A DNA stretch of 64,000 nt from a virus, in IMG/VR virus record IMGVR_UViG_3300009104_000014, positions 7,020 through 71,019 of that record; one strand, given 5' to 3'. Shown in pieces: positions 3,359-53,137 of this stretch. The notes beneath the pieces were generated by a model. The model was not told where the DNA came from. It made no database searches and was given only the letters and a program-made list of their open reading frames with translations. The stretch's first letter is position 1. Each line of letters opens with the position of its first letter. Both the position numbers and the translations under genes were made by a program.

Positions 3359-3622
3359 ATGGATAGAAATGAGAGAAAAATAGCAAGAGGAAGCCTTGTT
3401 GGGCCTATCAGAACAACGAGTGGGAACACCTACCTGCGTTTGGATGATGTTAGCGCAATAACAACCAACACGAAAGACCACGAAGCAACATTGGTGGATA
3501 TACACTTGAAGAGTGGAACAATCTTCACCGTGTATGGTAGCGAATGGCGCATAGTCCAAGCAATGGGGTTGCCAATCGAAATAATCAATGGTGGCGATGA
3601 AGGAGTTGGTATGGATGAGTAG
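3359..3622 (+). CDS. hypothetical protein (start re-assigned to ATG 3359)
   Basis: In frame with track ORF 3263..3622; ATG lies just after the HNH stop, with GAGG upstream. Confidence 0.55.
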   Translation: MDRNERKIARGSLVGPIRTTSGNTYLRLDDVSAITTNTKDHEATLVDIHLKSGTIFTVYGSEWRIVQAMGLPIEIINGGDEGVGMDE

Positions 3623-3767
3623 TGACTGGGATTACTTTCAAGCAGAGCGAGATATGGGGCAGGTCTGCAAGCACTTAGCAAGCGCGAGCGCATCCAAGGC
3701 CATTAAGTCAAGAGCAACAAAGTTGCTAAACGCTATCACAAAAGAAGCAGAGGAACGGTCGGCATGA
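3615..3767 (+). CDS. small hypothetical protein (50 aa, not in ORF track)
   Basis: MSSDWDYFQAERDMGQVCKHLAS...; fills the gap and has an ATGA overlap with 3764. Confidence 0.55.
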   Translation: MSSDWDYFQAERDMGQVCKHLASASASKAIKSRATKLLNAITKEAEERSA

Positions 3768-4120
3768 AAGACGAATTGTTAGAACACATTTGGTATTACG
3801 AAATGGCCGATGAGAGGATGGAACGAACCACAGAGATATGGGATGAGATGGCTGACGACTTCATGCGCTCGCATGGTTGGGATGGGCCACACTTGGCGTA
3901 TGATACTAACAGAGATACAGGCACACTATGGGTGCTAATTGGTAGCAACCAAGTTGGCCTTGACTTAGTAGAGATATGGGAAGACACCGGTATTCCTGAG
4001 AGAGAAGGGGATAGGTTGCTAACTTCAATGTATGATTACGCAGAAGAACTTGCTTACGAGAACTGGATTATTAGCGGAGATGCCTTAGAATGGGAAGGGT
4101 GGTCGCCTGACGAAGTATGA
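3764..4120 (+). CDS. acidic hypothetical protein
   Basis: 118-aa ORF, translationally coupled. Confidence 0.65.
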   Translation: MKDELLEHIWYYEMADERMERTTEIWDEMADDFMRSHGWDGPHLAYDTNRDTGTLWVLIGSNQVGLDLVEIWEDTGIPEREGDRLLTSMYDYAEELAYENWIISGDALEWEGWSPDEV

Positions 4121-4133
4121 GAAATACCAAGTC

Positions 4134-4451
4134 TTGCCAACAAAGGGATTACTACTGATAGCAAAGAACGGAAAGATACAGAAAATCCGAGGGAACGAAG
4201 TATCAGTTAGATATGAAAGTAGCAACGCTACCTATTCGGAAGAGGAATGGTTTTGTCTGTTAGACAAAATCGGCGTGTGGATAATAGCGAGAAGCATCGT
4301 ATCAGCACCTGTTCAAATAGCAAGTAGCGTCTTAGCAGACCCAAGTCTAACTTGTGCTAACGCAGTATGGGCGGCTATGGAAGATAGCCAACGAGAAAGG
4401 TATACCCGCCGAAGACCAAAGTTGTTTGAGATGGAGTGGTTGAATGAGTAA
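4134..4451 (+). CDS. hypothetical protein
   Basis: 105-aa ORF with TTG start; start uncertain. Confidence 0.5.
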   Translation: MPTKGLLLIAKNGKIQKIRGNEVSVRYESSNATYSEEEWFCLLDKIGVWIIARSIVSAPVQIASSVLADPSLTCANAVWAAMEDSQRERYTRRRPKLFEMEWLNE

Positions 4452-4650
4452 AGACGAGCCACCGTTGCTACATTTAGCAAATGTAAACGGTCCTATTTGC
4501 GGATTCAAATATGAATCCAAGTGGAATGAAGAGATGCAAGAATACGAATGCACTTTCCCAAAGAAATACCTTGACGATTCACTAACTAAATTACGACCAC
4601 GATGCCCTGATTGCTTACGGGTTTATAGGGAGCAGTATACCAAGGAATAA
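4444..4650 (+). CDS. small putative Zn-binding protein
   Basis: H..ICG...CPDC pattern in 68 aa. Confidence 0.55.
   Translation: MSKDEPPLLHLANVNGPICGFKYESKWNEEMQEYECTFPKKYLDDSLTKLRPRCPDCLRVYREQYTKE
4619..4630 (+). promoter_or_regulatory. archaeal TATA-box promoter (GGGTTTATAGGG class) driving the non-coding region
   Basis: Same motif lies 29-32 nt before ATGs at 6324, 11679, 15723 and 19111; here +30 falls on 4652, the start of a long stem. Confidence 0.7.
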
Positions 4651-4651
4651 T

Positions 4652-4781
4652 TGGTGGTAGTTAGAAAGAGTTGCTAATCTAACCGAGGGGTCGTATTTGT
4701 ATTACAGAAAAGGCCGATTGTTGGTGAAGCATTTGTTGTTATTGTTTGTCTTTCTTGTGTCCCTCTTTCTAATTACCACCA
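4652..4781 (+). ncRNA. putative structured ncRNA 1 (~130 nt)
   Basis: 19-bp closing stem 4652-4670/4763-4781 (one G-U pair), irregular internal hairpin, U-rich internal strand, no credible ORF, starts at predicted TSS. Confidence 0.6.
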
Positions 4782-4790
4782 CACACAAAA

Positions 4791-4986
4791 GGGGGAATAG
4801 CAACTAAAGACTGGCGCGGCTAACGAAAACAAGGTGTTAGCCCAAAACCTATACCATGTTCGGTCTAAATGTGGAAGTAATTAGCCACAGTATAGGGATG
4901 ACGGCATCCCGCGAATCGTATGAAAGAAGGATAAGCCAAGAAGGGTCGGAGAGAGATTAGACAATTGCGCCCGTTGCTATTCCCCC
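4791..4986 (+). ncRNA. putative structured ncRNA 2 (~196 nt, multi-stem)
   Basis: Perfect 14-bp closing stem 4791-4804/4973-4986 with nested helices 4813-17/4967-71, 4818-24/4836-42, 4863-68/4957-62, 4870-74/4885-89, 4895-4900/4905-10. Confidence 0.6.
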
Positions 4987-5001
4987 ACCTTACAATAAGA
5001 G

Positions 5002-5346
5002 ATGAGTAAAATGGCAAACAGAAGAAATAAACATCGTTTAACCAAGCGTGGAAGATGGGATAGAAGCAAGGCTTTGGAATGTGCCGCAAGGTATCTCGTT
5101 GAACAAGGCAGACCATTGTCTGCCGCCACCGTATATGATAACATGAGATTCAAAGATAGAAGGAAGAGAGATGGGGGCGGTATTGGCAATCTCTATAGAA
5201 ACAATAGAACCGCACAATCATACGGACAAATCGCGGCAAGGATGCTAAGATGCCCTGCCTTTAAGCAAATTGGCAAAAACCCAATCCTTTTCTCTTGTGA
5301 TGCAGAAGCCTATGAAAATTGGTGGCCGGTTGACCCACTACAATAA
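5002..5346 (+). CDS. basic winged-helix protein (DUF3860-like paralog)
   Basis: 'RYLVEQGRPLSAATVYDNM...SYGQIAARMLRCPAFKQIG' wHTH pattern. Confidence 0.55.
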   Translation: MSKMANRRNKHRLTKRGRWDRSKALECAARYLVEQGRPLSAATVYDNMRFKDRRKRDGGGIGNLYRNNRTAQSYGQIAARMLRCPAFKQIGKNPILFSCDAEAYENWWPVDPLQ

Positions 5347-5391
5347 ATGCTCAAGCAAACCGTGATATATCCGTAGATACCTACTCGGTAT

Positions 5392-6120
5392 ATGCGACAC
5401 CCGTTGCTATTCGGTGGGAACTTCCTACTTACAACACCGGATTTGATAGAAGTTGTAGATTTCAAAGCATGGAGAAAGGTAAACAACCCAAGAGAGAATA
5501 GAAAAAGACGCAGATTCTCACCGTATCTAACACTTAGATGTGGGGAAACCTTGCTAAAATTGGTTGGTTATAGTGCAGTATGGGAGTTCTTAGATGCAAT
5601 CCAGCCTGATTTACCAAGAATACCAATCAATTCGGTTATGAAAGGATATGAGTTCTATGATATAGAAACCATGTCTTTCTTGGAAGAGGTTGCTTGGTTC
5701 TTGGTAGAGAGTGATGAAGCGTTTATTGGATTCAAGATAAACGATAATGGTTTAGCAAGAGCAGTCAAGAAACCACTTAGCAACATCCCGATAGCCAGCA
5801 AAGAATACACAGGAGCGTCAGAATTGACGCTTTTTGATGCCACAAGATATTATGTTGCTATCTTAGAAAGCAAATGCACCAGCAAATACTTTGTTTACAC
5901 CATAGGTTATGGTGTTAGACCCCTGAAAGGAAAGGTGTTTAGCAAGATAGATGAAGCGCAGATGTATGCTGTAAGAACCACCCATGAGATAGCAAGCACA
6001 GAGAATGTTATCGGCCACCAAATCCTGAGGTTCGGGATGTTTGATGAAGAGGTAGATTCATTGGAGAATGAGTTATTCTTTCAGTTATTGAACGAAACTG
6101 AAAACCAAATTACTACTTAG
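5392..6120 (+). CDS. hypothetical protein
   Basis: 242-aa ORF; TATA-like TGATATAT 29 nt upstream (leaderless). Confidence 0.7.
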   Translation: MRHPLLFGGNFLLTTPDLIEVVDFKAWRKVNNPRENRKRRRFSPYLTLRCGETLLKLVGYSAVWEFLDAIQPDLPRIPINSVMKGYEFYDIETMSFLEEVAWFLVESDEAFIGFKINDNGLARAVKKPLSNIPIASKEYTGASELTLFDATRYYVAILESKCTSKYFVYTIGYGVRPLKGKVFSKIDEAQMYAVRTTHEIASTENVIGHQILRFGMFDEEVDSLENELFFQLLNETENQITT

Positions 6121-6290
6121 CAGTAAAGCGGTTTGCTAATTCTTTCTATTCTCTATAGGACATTAAGGGAATATACTGTAGTATAACTCCCTGATATACC
6201 CCTTGAACAATAAAAAGAATAGAAAAAGTGTGATACTGCTCCGCAGTAATATGGTCTAAAATGAACAGAAACAATAGAAAGAATAAGTGG
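6072..6290. repeat. ~215-bp imperfect palindromic element, copy A (origin-like)
   Basis: ATTCTTT at 6075 and 6139, AAAGAAT at 6214 and 6278, CAGTA/TACTG pair, central TATACT-gt-AGTATA; homologous to 59695..59910. Confidence 0.75.
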
Positions 6291-6300
6291 GTTTATACGG
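6289..6300 (+). promoter_or_regulatory. TATA-box promoter of the helicase operon
   Basis: GGGTTTATACGG about 32 nt upstream of ATG 6324. Confidence 0.65.
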
Positions 6301-6323
6301 ACAACCACATACCATAGGTATGA

Positions 6324-6689
6324 ATGGGTAGCGGAAGAGCAGGTCAAACAAAGAGATTACAACAAACCGTCTATAGGCTGATACAGGAAGAGGGGCCGGC
6401 TACGGCTGATTATTTAGCGCGTCGCTACAATGACCGCCCTTATCATGCTGGCAGACAGACTCGCGGTATGAATCACGGAACCAACGCAAGAAGGTTAGCG
6501 GCAGTTATGGCTACAAGTGTTCTATTCGAGCCGGTAGGTGTAGTGAATATACCAAAAGTGGGGGCGGTTGCTATGTGGGGAACTGTCCCTCTGAAAGAAG
6601 CGGCCGCTAAAGCAATTGCTTCTAAAAGGCCCATACACAAATACCCACTAATACTACGCGAAGCAATGAAGGAGATGATGATACAATGA
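6324..6689 (+). CDS. winged-helix protein (DUF3860-like paralog)
   Basis: 'LQQTVYRLIQEEGPATADYLARRY...TNARRLAAVMATSVLFEPVG'; clear paralog of 21..374. Confidence 0.65.
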   Translation: MGSGRAGQTKRLQQTVYRLIQEEGPATADYLARRYNDRPYHAGRQTRGMNHGTNARRLAAVMATSVLFEPVGVVNIPKVGAVAMWGTVPLKEAAAKAIASKRPIHKYPLILREAMKEMMIQ

Positions 6690-7420
6690 GAGAGAGTGCT
6701 AACGATGTGGATATTTATTGGGAGAAAGAAATAGAGGGCTTGATAACAAGAGTTGTTATCGTCTGCGCCCAAGAACCATGCCCCATCCCTACAATCCTAA
6801 CCGACAATATAGACAAAGACGGAGTAAGGGTTGCTACGGTCTTATCCAAATTAGGTCGAGTTATGCCCTTCTTTGATATTGATTCTGATTTTGGAACGGT
6901 GATTTACCAACACAACCAAACATTGGTTATCAACTTCCGCGACTTTCATTCGATAGCGGGGGGAAACCATTGGTTATTCGGTTATCCTATTGTTAGAGAA
7001 ACAGTAGAGTCAGTATTGAACCGTCTATCGGAGCAACCATCAATGCCTTCTGTAGTAATAGCAACATCTACTGTTTATTGTGCGGAGCCGAAGAAGTATC
7101 TCGTAAAGAGTGAAAGTGAATCAACTCATTTTAGCAAGCAATTCAATGAATTGGAAGAAGAGATACTTCCGATGTTCGCGTATGTGAGCGCGTGGTTAGC
7201 ACAACAGAGAGGGATTGGGGCTACTATTGTTTTCTTCCGAGCAACAATAGACCAAGTAATGACTCAACAGATGTTTGCCGATGGAGTAGGCTTATTCTCT
7301 ATGATAGAACTGCCTGTAGACATAGATAAGGCGCAAGATTCTTATGATGAATACGAATCCGAGTGGGGTGTAGGTGAAATGCTTGAGTCAGATTCAGGAG
7401 TTGGGGGAATGTTTACTTGA
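6686..7420 (+). CDS. hypothetical protein, possible PAC2 (proteasome assembly chaperone)-like fold
   Basis: Size and 'SAWLAQQRGIGATIVF' resemble the PAC2-family C-terminal motif; weak similarity recalled by eye. Confidence 0.35.
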   Translation: MRESANDVDIYWEKEIEGLITRVVIVCAQEPCPIPTILTDNIDKDGVRVATVLSKLGRVMPFFDIDSDFGTVIYQHNQTLVINFRDFHSIAGGNHWLFGYPIVRETVESVLNRLSEQPSMPSVVIATSTVYCAEPKKYLVKSESESTHFSKQFNELEEEILPMFAYVSAWLAQQRGIGATIVFFRATIDQVMTQQMFADGVGLFSMIELPVDIDKAQDSYDEYESEWGVGEMLESDSGVGGMFT

Positions 7421-8763
7421 TGGTTAATGATAGTGAGATGGATATATTCGATGAGTTGCAGTCTTTCTGTGATGCCAACCACTATGTAGCGGTTGATGAT
7501 AAATTACCAATCTTCATTTGTAGTGTGGGAGCGCACATATTCAATGCGATAAACAAATGTTCTCGTTGCGATTTCACAGTAGAGAACCCCGTTGATGGTT
7601 ATTTCTCAATCCCCAATTGTCCCTTGCGACATGATAATAACCCAATATACACACCTATGAGTAGACTTGCAGATACAAGAGTCCATATCCTCATGCGAGG
7701 AAAGAAAGGTTCAGGAAAGAATGTTCTAATTGACTTATTTTTAGCGGAAGGGACTGGCCTACTATGGAATCCCGAAGGATTCAACGGCGTTGGTTTTAGA
7801 ACCATGATAGGTGCTAACTCTATCACAGAAGCGGGATTATTCGGTAGTGTGAATGAAGATGGTTATGTTGCCGGAAGACCTGTAGCGAGAGAGTTATGCG
7901 GTGGGTTCCTTGGGTTTGAAGAGTTCTCATCCCTAACAGATGCTACAAAGAAAGACCACAGTATGGATATGAAGAACCAGTTGCTAACAAGTCTTGATAG
8001 CGGGAGAGTGAACAAGGGTATGAGGCATGGTTGGGTTAGATACAATACGCGCTATACCTGTTGGGCGGGAACTCAACCCGCAAGGTTTGAATTGGAGTCG
8101 GGTCTTGACCGTAGGTTCTTCATTATAGAGATTGAGATGAGTCCTACAATTGAATTGGAATACAAAATAGCACAAAATAAACAGGCTCGCATGACTCCAT
8201 CAGAAAGAGCGGAGTTAGCAACTAAGGCTATGGAAATGAGAGCGTGGTTCTACAAGCGCATGGAAGATGCTATACTAACCCCACCAACGAGTGTGTCTTT
8301 CACCCCTACTTTTGAGGAATGGGTTTTGCGAGATACCGTAAGGTCATTTGAGGCAGATTTGTTTAGAAGATTATCAATTGGATATGCTATGATGCAACCC
8401 GATTATGAGGGTGGGAAACCGTTGCTCGTTGATATTGATGACCGACTCTCACTTATCCTATCCCAATCATTAGCAATGAGAAGGACAGTTATGGATGCTG
8501 ATGTTGCTCTGATTAAGGCCATGTATTGGGGCCAAGAAATACCAAAGTCTACTATGCTAAAGGAGATTGCTAAGGTAATTACCAACGGTGATTATCAAAG
8601 TGCTAAGAGATGGGTAGAGGAAAACCTTGTGGGGGAGTCTTGGTATGAAGAATATACCCCGAAGGTAGTTGGTAAAAGAGGAAGAAGGGGGGTGGCTTGT
8701 CGTATAGGAGAGAAGCCGCCGGAACCCGACGAGTTCGCTACATGGGGTAATGGTAATGCGTAG
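7417..8763 (+). CDS. mcm: MCM-like replicative helicase (AAA+), N-terminally reduced
   Basis: Walker A GKKGSGKN, 'SITEAGLFGSV' (cf. MCM SSxAGLTA), Walker B 'GFEEFSS', arginine finger 'GLDRRF'. Confidence 0.75.
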   Translation: MMVNDSEMDIFDELQSFCDANHYVAVDDKLPIFICSVGAHIFNAINKCSRCDFTVENPVDGYFSIPNCPLRHDNNPIYTPMSRLADTRVHILMRGKKGSGKNVLIDLFLAEGTGLLWNPEGFNGVGFRTMIGANSITEAGLFGSVNEDGYVAGRPVARELCGGFLGFEEFSSLTDATKKDHSMDMKNQLLTSLDSGRVNKGMRHGWVRYNTRYTCWAGTQPARFELESGLDRRFFIIEIEMSPTIELEYKIAQNKQARMTPSERAELATKAMEMRAWFYKRMEDAILTPPTSVSFTPTFEEWVLRDTVRSFEADLFRRLSIGYAMMQPDYEGGKPLLVDIDDRLSLILSQSLAMRRTVMDADVALIKAMYWGQEIPKSTMLKEIAKVITNGDYQSAKRWVEENLVGESWYEEYTPKVVGKRGRRGVACRIGEKPPEPDEFATWGNGNA

Positions 8764-14476: not shown

Positions 14477-15447
14477 TGTCTTGGGGACAAGCCGTTCCTT
14501 CCTCTACGGAGAAGCCCATTGAAGAGAGGACCGTCTACAATAAGGATTACTATACTGGTCTACTGACTGAATCAAAGGTCAACCAATTCCCAGTTAGAAT
14601 AGCGGCAGTTGGTAAAGAAAACACCGCTAAAACAGGATTGCTAATTGATATGGCCCTCAACAACACCGATAAGGATATTATCATCTTGGATATTGATAAT
14701 AGCGCGTCACAGACGGTTATGGTGAATTATCCCAATAACAACCGAATAAAAGTAATCCCCATCTATGATGCGGCTGATAGTTCCATCTTCAATGAAGACA
14801 ACTCTACTAATTGGGTTGCTTTGGTTGATAAAATGAGTTGGTTCATGCGTATCTTAGGCGAACAGAGTAGAAAGGGAGAAGTGGGAGCAGTAATCATAGA
14901 CGGTTGCTCTACTTTCCTTAAGTGGTGTGAGTTCAGTATGACCGATGTTCTCCTTAGAAGGGGAGTAATAGAGCAAGAGGGGGATGCTTTTAATCAGAAG
15001 GAATGGCGAACTCGAAATCAACTCTTCCGTGATGTTATCAATAGAGCGCATCAACTTCAAGTTCCCTTCGTTGGTTATACCTTCCATCTGAAAGATGTAA
15101 AGGAATATATGGATATTGGCAACGGCCAAAAGGGATTAACTAAGGTTGGTGAAACCCCTGAGTGGGAAAATGGAACAAAGAGATTGTTTTCGCAACAGGT
15201 ATGGCTCACCCGATATAGTAAGAAAGGAGATTTGGCGGCAGGGGTCAAGAAGGATGATAGCCTAAATAGCAACGAGTGGGTTGTTAGAGCAACCATTAGT
15301 GAAATGAAAGGTCTTCATCAAGAATACTTGGGGACAACACACGATGTGCTTAGTGTAAATGATGGAGAGGTCACATGGTATGGTCTTCCTTTCTTGCATT
15401 GGAATGGCAAGAACGAGAAAGAGGCTACCAATAATGGCGAGGCGTAA
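14476..15447 (+). CDS. RecA/RadA-superfamily ATPase (Sak4/AAA_24-like recombinase)
   Basis: Variant Walker A GKENTAKT, 'IIILDID', Walker B 'VIIDG'; follows the SSB gene; GTG start overlaps upstream TAG. Confidence 0.7.
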   Translation: MSWGQAVPSSTEKPIEERTVYNKDYYTGLLTESKVNQFPVRIAAVGKENTAKTGLLIDMALNNTDKDIIILDIDNSASQTVMVNYPNNNRIKVIPIYDAADSSIFNEDNSTNWVALVDKMSWFMRILGEQSRKGEVGAVIIDGCSTFLKWCEFSMTDVLLRRGVIEQEGDAFNQKEWRTRNQLFRDVINRAHQLQVPFVGYTFHLKDVKEYMDIGNGQKGLTKVGETPEWENGTKRLFSQQVWLTRYSKKGDLAAGVKKDDSLNSNEWVVRATISEMKGLHQEYLGTTHDVLSVNDGEVTWYGLPFLHWNGKNEKEATNNGEA

Positions 15448-52817: not shown

Positions 52818-53137
52818 TCCTCTTCGTCTGTATTAAAATTGAGCGGTATATCCAAGAAAACCGCATCTTTGGGACAAGAGGGAGTTCTACCCATCAAAAA
52901 TACTTCGCCTGATTTAACAATCTGTCGGGCGAACTCGCTATTTGGGACCCAATAGGTAAACCCTGTAGCAAGGATATTTTGAGGACCTTCTCTTCTTGGT
53001 CTTCGTATAAGACGGATAAGCCAACCATTACCTTCTTCCCAGTTGTTTAGCCTATGCTCTAAATTAGCGATAGTAGGCTCACTCGGAACTGGTATCTGCT
53101 TCTTCCTCAACTGACTCGTCAACGATGCTCTGCTCAT
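52814..53137 (-). CDS. hypothetical protein
   Basis: 107-aa ORF, ATGA-coupled. Confidence 0.6.
   Translation of the reverse strand: MSRASLTSQLRKKQIPVPSEPTIANLEHRLNNWEEGNGWLIRLIRRPRREGPQNILATGFTYWVPNSEFARQIVKSGEVFLMGRTPSCPKDAVFLDIPLNFNTDEEE

Follow-up and report, generated by a model that had tools for sequence, protein, structure and literature searches.

A set of 10,006 candidate structured RNA motifs from phages and metagenomes has been described (Fremin, Bhatt and Kyrpides 2023, PMC10690425), and the element studied here, at positions 4791 to 4989 of the window (the whole 64,000-nt stretch of viral DNA that was analysed), resembles the orphan motifs of that set, as they are characterised there, in being a conserved intergenic RNA of viral contigs that is supported by covariation and found in IMG/VR-type data. 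We found no published description of this RNA, and the candidate list of PMC10690425 may include it. In contrast to the named families, it has neither a name nor a model in Rfam 15. When the window was searched with the 4227 Rfam models (including RNase P, SRP, 6S, pRNA, riboswitches and ribozymes), no match reached the gathering score, and a search of positions 4600 to 5050 at E up to 10 returned only six far sub-threshold eukaryotic snoRNA or miRNA matches and one sRNA. Copies of the two other core types described below (types B and C) likewise gave no match in Rfam.

The phi29-type pRNA and the present element are both phage RNAs of 100 to 200 nt with a three-way junction and a long helix formed by their own 5' and 3' ends, and both carry two short complementary single-stranded tracts able to pair within or between molecules. 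Their sequences and helix order are, however, unrelated, the Rfam pRNA models were not matched, and the phage that carries the element has, besides a 71-kb genome with repeats at its termini, a large terminase of the ordinary kind. Twister, pistol, hatchet, HDV-like and preQ1/SAM-II-type folds are similar in size, in their modular stems and in their phage intergenic sites, and in having a hairpin loop that could pair with a downstream strand across an A-rich linker; unlike these ribozymes and aptamers, the element matches no family, has no common gene context and contains no recognised catalytic or ligand core. The arrangement of tandem long hairpins behind a promoter-like box recalls the intercistronic processing hairpins of phage early transcripts, and the end of the long type-A clamp, with a first G, a last C and ACC after it, resembles the acceptor-like terminus of RNase P-processed stable RNAs. 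RNase III sites span about two helical turns, however, and the 14-bp clamp is shorter; the RNase P-type end (a G...C helix plus ACC), present in all six of the long type-A variants listed, is absent from the minimal form L026 and from type B. With tRNA and tmRNA the element shares a terminal helix followed by ACC, but it has no T-arm, D-arm or tag frame, and ARAGORN reported no tRNA or tmRNA gene in the 64-kb window; the ARAGORN and Rfam results agree with the original prediction, which had seen no core of tRNA, tmRNA or other well-known RNAs.

The window covers positions 7020 to 71,019 of a viral record 71,019 bp long that has direct terminal repeats of 119 bp. Throughout its first 22.6 kb every gene lies on the + strand, in a block that encodes an HNH endonuclease, a dNMP kinase, a clamp loader, a family-B DNA polymerase and nucleases, and the structural genes follow on the - strand. 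A blastn search of positions 3500 to 7500 against cultured phages found no similar DNA, the terminase is at most 26% identical to that of any cultured phage, and Pfam and PHROGs searches of 40 neighbouring or early proteins revealed no RNA-processing enzyme and no RNA polymerase. The element sits in the 351-nt interval 4651 to 5001, the largest gap of the + strand block, and its sequence was identical in four DNA sequencing runs (one study; two of the runs possibly the source), with no variants and no joints; the sequencing runs listed as carrying it included no RNA run. A promoter-like box, GGGTTTATAGGG (4619 to 4630, + strand), stands about 33 nt 5' of the hairpin designated ncRNA 1 and is the presumed start signal for both RNAs. 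Exact GGTTTATAnGG sites number five in the window, all on the + strand (4620, 6290, 11647, 13201 and 15692), and four of the five stand 32 to 43 nt before an ORF start or the 5' end of ncRNA 1, while the eight sites obtained with one mismatch are not above the count in shuffles. We consider the box a candidate phage promoter that may yield leaderless or short-leader mRNAs. No terminator-like site was seen adjoining the element, so transcription should continue into 5002 to 6120, and a single transcript initiated at the box would carry ncRNA 1 and the element at its front and run on into that region.

The window copy is enclosed by a clamp helix, P1, whose arms at 4791 to 4804 and 4973 to 4986 on the + strand (14 nt each, 168 nt apart) are 100% complementary and are followed by an unpaired ACC at 4987 to 4989; direct comparison of the arms (14 of 14 pairs) thus confirms the perfect closing stem that had been predicted. 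In a stem scan of the 71-kb genome, this clamp and the 19-bp stem of ncRNA 1 were the longest contiguous long-range stems, collagen-like repeats excepted. The folding energy of the + strand, one of the points on which the element could have been refuted, is unusual (-66.4 kcal/mol vs -47.7 +/- 4.6 for 200 dinucleotide shuffles, z = -4.05), with none of the 200 shuffles folding as well. The - strand folds equally well (z = -4.50), and energy alone therefore cannot assign the strand.

Within the clamp, the parts follow one another along the + strand. The closing helix P2 is formed by UGGC at 4812 to 4815 and by 4935 to 4938; P3 (4818 to 4842) pairs 4818-4824 with 4836-4842 over 7 bp, leaving a loop at 4825 to 4835 that includes AGGU (4832 to 4835); the A-rich joining strand CAAAACCUAUACC (4843 to 4855) contains ACCU at 4847 to 4850, the proposed pseudoknot partner of the P3 loop; and the P4 arm (4857 to 4922), with a base helix of 4857-4862 and 4917-4922, encloses the optional hairpins P5 (4870-4874 with 4885-4889) and P6 (4895-4900 with 4905-4910). 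A conserved 3' strand, AAAGAAGGAUAA, together with GCCA, the 3' strand of P2, occupies 4923 to 4938, and an accessory hairpin read by eye (4943 to 4972; stem GGGUCG/CGCCC with a bulged U, and a conserved loop of 19 nt) leads to the 3' arm of the clamp. The five nested helices proposed at first were partly right: comparison across relatives supports P2, P3, P4, P5, P6 and the accessory hairpin, and does not support several small helices that the single-sequence fold has in the 3' third. A GGCGC/GCGCC helix of the single-sequence fold was also rejected: its 3' partner belongs to the accessory-hairpin stem, and distant homologues place A opposite A.

These comparisons draw on a family that extends well beyond the window, with copies in 24 other IMG/VR records and six metagenome contigs, about 21 distinct sequences and three core types, and we hold with high confidence that positions 4791 to 4989 of the + strand are one copy of a real, conserved structured RNA family that is not in Rfam. 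The carriers are a clade of uncultured marine tailed phages. The loci of the first relatives were found by searches with the flanking proteins, and conserved words of the RNA were then searched in viral contigs and metagenomes. A covariance model of the core (R1) picked up distant copies (L016, L020, G002 and G003), a two-block pattern retrieved 23 viral records, all of them confirmed by covariance models, and a second covariance model (R2) added the third, minimal core type, C, in G001 and G002. The homologue patterns were derived from the window copy, which biases the sample towards look-alikes. An 18-mer searched in metagenomes hit 68 stretches, six of them real copies and 62 chance matches; a 17-mer of the accessory loop hit 13, four of which belong to the family (L012, L013, L016 and L020) and nine of which have no model match; and the exact two-arm pattern of the window stem had no match in viral contigs. 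The sequence of L006, the closest relative, recurs unchanged in L005, L012 and L013.

A few candidate copies were set aside. Two stretches in bacterial MAG contigs, one scoring 19.7 bits at E = 0.009 and the other without a score, were judged by eye to be chance, and no bacterial or prophage copy is claimed. A second, weak R2 match in the window's own genome, G000 (window positions 52928 to 53023, + strand, 18.4 bits), is bordered by GGCGA and GGAUAAGCCA; it lies within a minus-strand ORF and is probably chance, as is its counterpart in the close relative G009.

Across the family, the 14-bp stem proved to be a clamp only; the outer parts are swapped among related phages and the core is kept. 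This conserved core (4812 to 4938 in the window) is a three-way junction composed of the GGC/GCC closing helix, the 7-bp P3 and a P4 of variable length. The GGC/GCC pairs are invariant in 18 of 18 aligned sequences, and in many copies the closing helix extends outward; it is followed by two letters, GA, GU or GC. The five basal pairs of P3 never change, and its loop, which in L006 carries an inserted 15-nt hairpin, has GG in every copy. The first joining strand reads CAAAACC, three letters, then ACC, with CAAAACC and the second ACC invariant in all 18 sequences of types A and B, and its type-C form is CAAACC...AUCC. The second joining strand has GGAUAA at its end, with the GCC of the closing helix following immediately; GGAUAAGCC is identical in 17 of the 18 sequences, the exception being L105 with GGGUAA. 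In type C the strand before P4 is, by eye, fully complementary to GGAUAA, which implies that P4 may stack on the closing helix; such stacking is a tentative proposal, and types A and B allow only part of the pairing.

The periphery is far more variable. The interior of P4 ranges from a 6-nt cUUCGg cap, which replaces everything inside the arm in L026 and L042, to 119 nt in L109, and L028 carries an unrelated 63-nt insert. The accessory hairpin lies 3' of the core in type A, is located within P4 in L016, L104 and L113, and is missing from L014, L026 and most type-B copies; its first pair is G-C in the window, L006, L016, L104 and L113 and U-A in L028, L042 and L120. In G001 a type-C core is set within a clamp and an accessory hairpin that are the same as those of L042, which indicates that core types are interchangeable. 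The minimal natural form of 105 nt (L026) and these natural domain swaps amount to a ready-made mutational series for assays of cleavage, ligand binding or protein capture.

The helices themselves are supported by compensatory changes. In an alignment of 18 sequences fitted to the model, and hence leaning towards the structure, 90.8% of cells pair vs 78.8% after shuffling (0 of 500 shuffles reach the observed value), slid controls give at most 54%, and 32 cells are changed on both sides vs 13.2 in shuffles (0 of 500). In an unfitted MAFFT alignment, P2 and P3 together pair in 89.7% of cells vs 84.6% when shuffled (0 of 500). The seven close type-A variants alone show covariation not above shuffles (one pair; 287 of 500 shuffles as high), so that support for the pairing comes from the more distant types and from P1. 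Individual helices illustrate this. The sixth pair of P3 is CG in eight, AU in six, GC in three and unpaired in one of the 18 sequences; the outward extension of P2 varies compatibly among UA, UG, GC, GU and AU; P4 has three pairs in which both partners differ from type A to type B; and one pair of P5 occurs as UA, UG and CG. Between the window and the L014 type, six of the 14 P1 pairs are changed on both sides, and type-B outer helices have their own, unrelated sequences of 5 to 12 bp, whose cognate flanks pair at -18.4 kcal/mol vs -11.6 for non-cognate flanks. G-U pairs occur in P1 (the U-G pair of L028), P2 and P4, and would be mismatches on the other strand; they point to the + strand for the RNA, in agreement with the + strand of all neighbouring genes. 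The structured RNA first proposed from the window sequence is thereby upheld in its clamp, its hairpin and its arm. The AGGT (4832 to 4835) and ACCT (4847 to 4850) tracts are also where they had been placed, and they could pair in type A and type B and, through GG/CC alone, in type C, with letters that never vary; the GG(U) of the P3 loop may be read as pairing with the first ACC in a putative pseudoknot.

The upstream hairpin shows a looser kind of conservation. ncRNA 1 (4652 to 4781, + strand) is a 130-nt irregular hairpin with a 19-bp terminal stem (z = -4.48), directly upstream of the element, and its stem covaries against L006. Analogous hairpins of other sequence precede the type-A copies of L014, L028, L042 and L120, and such a hairpin is found in front of long type-A forms only, not of L026 or any type-B copy; in L009 and L010 it stands alone (about 2370 to 2470) before a 242-aa gene. 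As a side observation, these long hairpins keep their position and stem pairing and not their sequence (the L014 copy lies at about 785 to 845), two of them stand in tandem before the RNA in L042, and in the L014 lineage CAUAA stands before, and ACC after, each hairpin as well as the clamp of the RNA itself.

It had also been suggested that the element might be a structured leader of the downstream winged-helix gene (5002 to 5346, 114 aa), and this suggestion did not hold. L006 has ncRNA 1 and the element in the same place, directly followed by the window's sequence preceding the 242-aa gene, with no 114-aa gene; conversely, in L002 to L004 the 114-aa gene comes after a homologue of a 448-aa gene and lacks such an RNA upstream. 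The RNA without the gene and the gene without the RNA together show that the RNA is not tied to the 114-aa gene. Elsewhere it precedes unrelated genes, encoding 33-aa, 84-87-aa or 101-aa proteins, a clamp loader, a cytosine-methylase-like protein (by eye) and others. A link through winged-helix paralogues was tried and dropped: BLASTP revealed no similarity between the genes that the RNA precedes in the window and in L114, or between the 114-aa and 101-aa downstream proteins, and Pfam matches stayed below threshold. The 114-aa gene itself behaves as a movable cassette, and in L014, L028 and L042 a gene for a 33-aa basic peptide replaces it behind the same ribosome-binding stretch.

The RNA is always located between genes on the coding strand, 10 to 150 nt from its neighbours, and always 13 to 62 nt before a same-strand ORF. 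Type-B loci usually lie 10 to 18 nt after a stop codon and 17 to 57 nt before the next start, the exceptions being L107 (96 nt after the stop) and G002 (147 nt behind a tandem type-C copy). Seven of the eight records that are at least 97% complete hold the RNA, and nine of ten overall when searched with R2; G004, at 97% completeness, had no copy in the R2 search. Copies number one per genome, rarely two, with one strong copy in G000. The sites shift: at window positions of about 15434 to 15447, which correspond to the RNA site of G003, there are two overlapping genes, no RNA and no target duplication. The terminases of the carriers range from 87% down to 28% identity to that of the window, and the type-B core is almost the same throughout, remaining nearly unchanged in phages whose terminase is only 28 to 30% identical to the window's. 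In the tight genomes of phages, a non-coding module of 100 to 200 nt that is kept across a broad clade must pay its way.

A single copy (rarely two), shifting sites, unrelated neighbouring genes and insulation by a clamp suggest that the RNA most likely functions as a self-contained unit, in effect a separate gene, and we lean, with middling confidence, towards such a unit over a neighbour-specific regulator. A core that is more conserved than the surrounding proteins, mobile, and fitted with exchangeable outer parts is, moreover, the signature of an RNA that recognises something conserved. On this basis, a clamp helix of arbitrary sequence would always insulate the RNA, which would probably be long-lived or excised at the clamp and would probably recognise one conserved partner, be it a host factor, a phage factor or a small molecule, while the adjacent gene would not be regulated by it. 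A more specific version, which we put forward as speculative and in itself unlikely, is that the family may constitute a new small functional RNA class, a free-standing phage gene acting either as a self-cleaving ribozyme or as an aptamer that binds a conserved host molecule. The aptamer would, for example, soak up a signalling nucleotide or capture a host protein, and the clamp would provide for folding wherever the gene is located. Even as one more orphan motif, the family corrects the annotation of the 351-nt "gap" and shows that the 114-aa gene is not its partner.

Several other functions were weighed against the self-contained unit. Small self-cleaving RNAs of phages typically have modular stems, tetraloops and intergenic sites, and the element is small and putatively pseudoknotted, has near-invariant junction strands, stems whose lengths vary freely, tetraloop caps and an accessory domain at differing positions, occurs in tandem in G002 and sits in phage intergenic regions before unrelated genes. 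All of this would suit a new self-cleaving ribozyme, or an RNA-processing insulator cutting a polycistronic transcript between genes, yet these traits suit any compact functional RNA equally; no known ribozyme family was matched even when E was allowed to reach 10, and neither a recognisable catalytic-core motif nor a mark of a cleavage site was seen, and we consider this function rather improbable.

The constant intergenic position on the coding strand also makes a cis role on the operon transcript possible, and its most explicit form would be a riboswitch-like aptamer acting on the following operon, in which a ligand would stabilise the closing helices and alter downstream translation or transcript fate. 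The core is as conserved as such an aptamer would be expected to be, with GGCG, GGCUA..UAGCC, CAAAACC..ACC and GGAUAAGCC invariant or nearly so in the 18 sequences over 28 to 87% terminase identity; a same-strand ORF always begins 13 to 62 nt further on, the G002 copies are in tandem, and in L101, L102, L112 and L116 the flanks by which the closing helix is extended can pair with the GGAG and the start region of the clamp-loader gene. This pairing with the ribosome-binding site is, however, confined to that one lineage, and as a further candidate for an expression platform no adjoining terminator was found; the downstream ORFs are unrelated and share no common function, riboswitch families were unmatched, and a clamp of 12 to 14 bp, as in the window, would form with or without ligand. 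Taken together, the cis-acting aptamer has only a low probability in our estimation.

The loci just mentioned and a few others offer separate observations on how the element meets its neighbours. In L101, L102, L112 and L116, where the two flanks can pair with one another over the GGAG and start codon of the next gene, the upstream stop codon lies in the 5' strand, possibly forming a translational coupling device. The ORFs that precede the RNA in L016, L104, L105, L113 and L114 are unrelated and finish with an acidic, E-rich tail, their stop codons falling at the 5' strand of its outer helix or immediately ahead of it; in these five loci the element seems to supply the last codons of whichever gene precedes it. 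In G002 (equivalent to L099, about 1501 to 1790, - strand) the minimal type-C and the type-B core stand in tandem, with flanks of about 35 nt duplicated on each side.

A purely passive function was considered as well. The element would then be a specially folded stabiliser or roadblock that shields neighbouring mRNA from host ribonucleases, as intercistronic hairpins and nuclease-resistant viral RNAs do, in keeping with its place between genes or near a transcript 5' end alongside other long hairpins and with its clamp helices. Exonuclease-resistant viral RNAs combine a three-way junction with a pseudoknot, a fold type that the junction and putative pseudoknot of the element resemble. For mere protection, however, simple hairpins would suffice, and single strands that hardly vary speak for specific recognition; none of the known resistant RNAs in Rfam was similar, and we regard a passive stabiliser as doubtful, with a slim probability.

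A DNA-level element is considerably harder to reconcile with the comparison and appears highly improbable. It would consist of inverted GTTGCTA copies serving as a protein site or origin, or of a small mobile element with terminal inverted repeats, and for it speak the 12-fold enriched motif in both arms, a - strand that folds as well as the + strand, presence at some orthologous sites and absence at others, and the tandem duplicate in G002. Against it, the L014-type stem has fully covaried and lost the motif, on the opposite strand, as in DNA, the G-U pairs would turn into C-A mismatches, hairpins are inserted and tetraloops cap the arms, and the ends are not conserved. Nor does the element look MITE-like, having a single strong copy in the genome, a stem of changing sequence and, at the single site that was compared, no target duplication. 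The original prediction was right that both arms of the closing stem hold GTTGCTA/TAGCAAC, but the motif is incidental to the stem, which is covaried and without TAGCAAC elsewhere.

That the region encodes the 34-residue peptide of its ATG-started ORF (4856 to 4960) has next to no probability: the 34-codon frame is present, but frames from the same ATG measure 34, 24, 37, 37, 10, 34 and 22 residues in seven variants, with differing C-termini and indels that are not multiples of three, and the minimal type-A forms delete most of it, so that the protein-level selection named at the outset as a challenge to the RNA is not seen.

The GTTGCTA/TAGCAAC motif has a distribution of its own. It occurs 94 times in the window vs 7.8 expected (12-fold enriched), on both strands and inside genes, and 65 of the 94 occurrences fall within the initial 24 kb. 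No copy has G as its next base, and beyond that the flanks share little consensus. The motif is present in relatives too and looks like a DNA-level motif. A separate AT-rich gap at positions 6072 to 6290 of the window contains several inverted AATAGAAAGAAT-type repeats.
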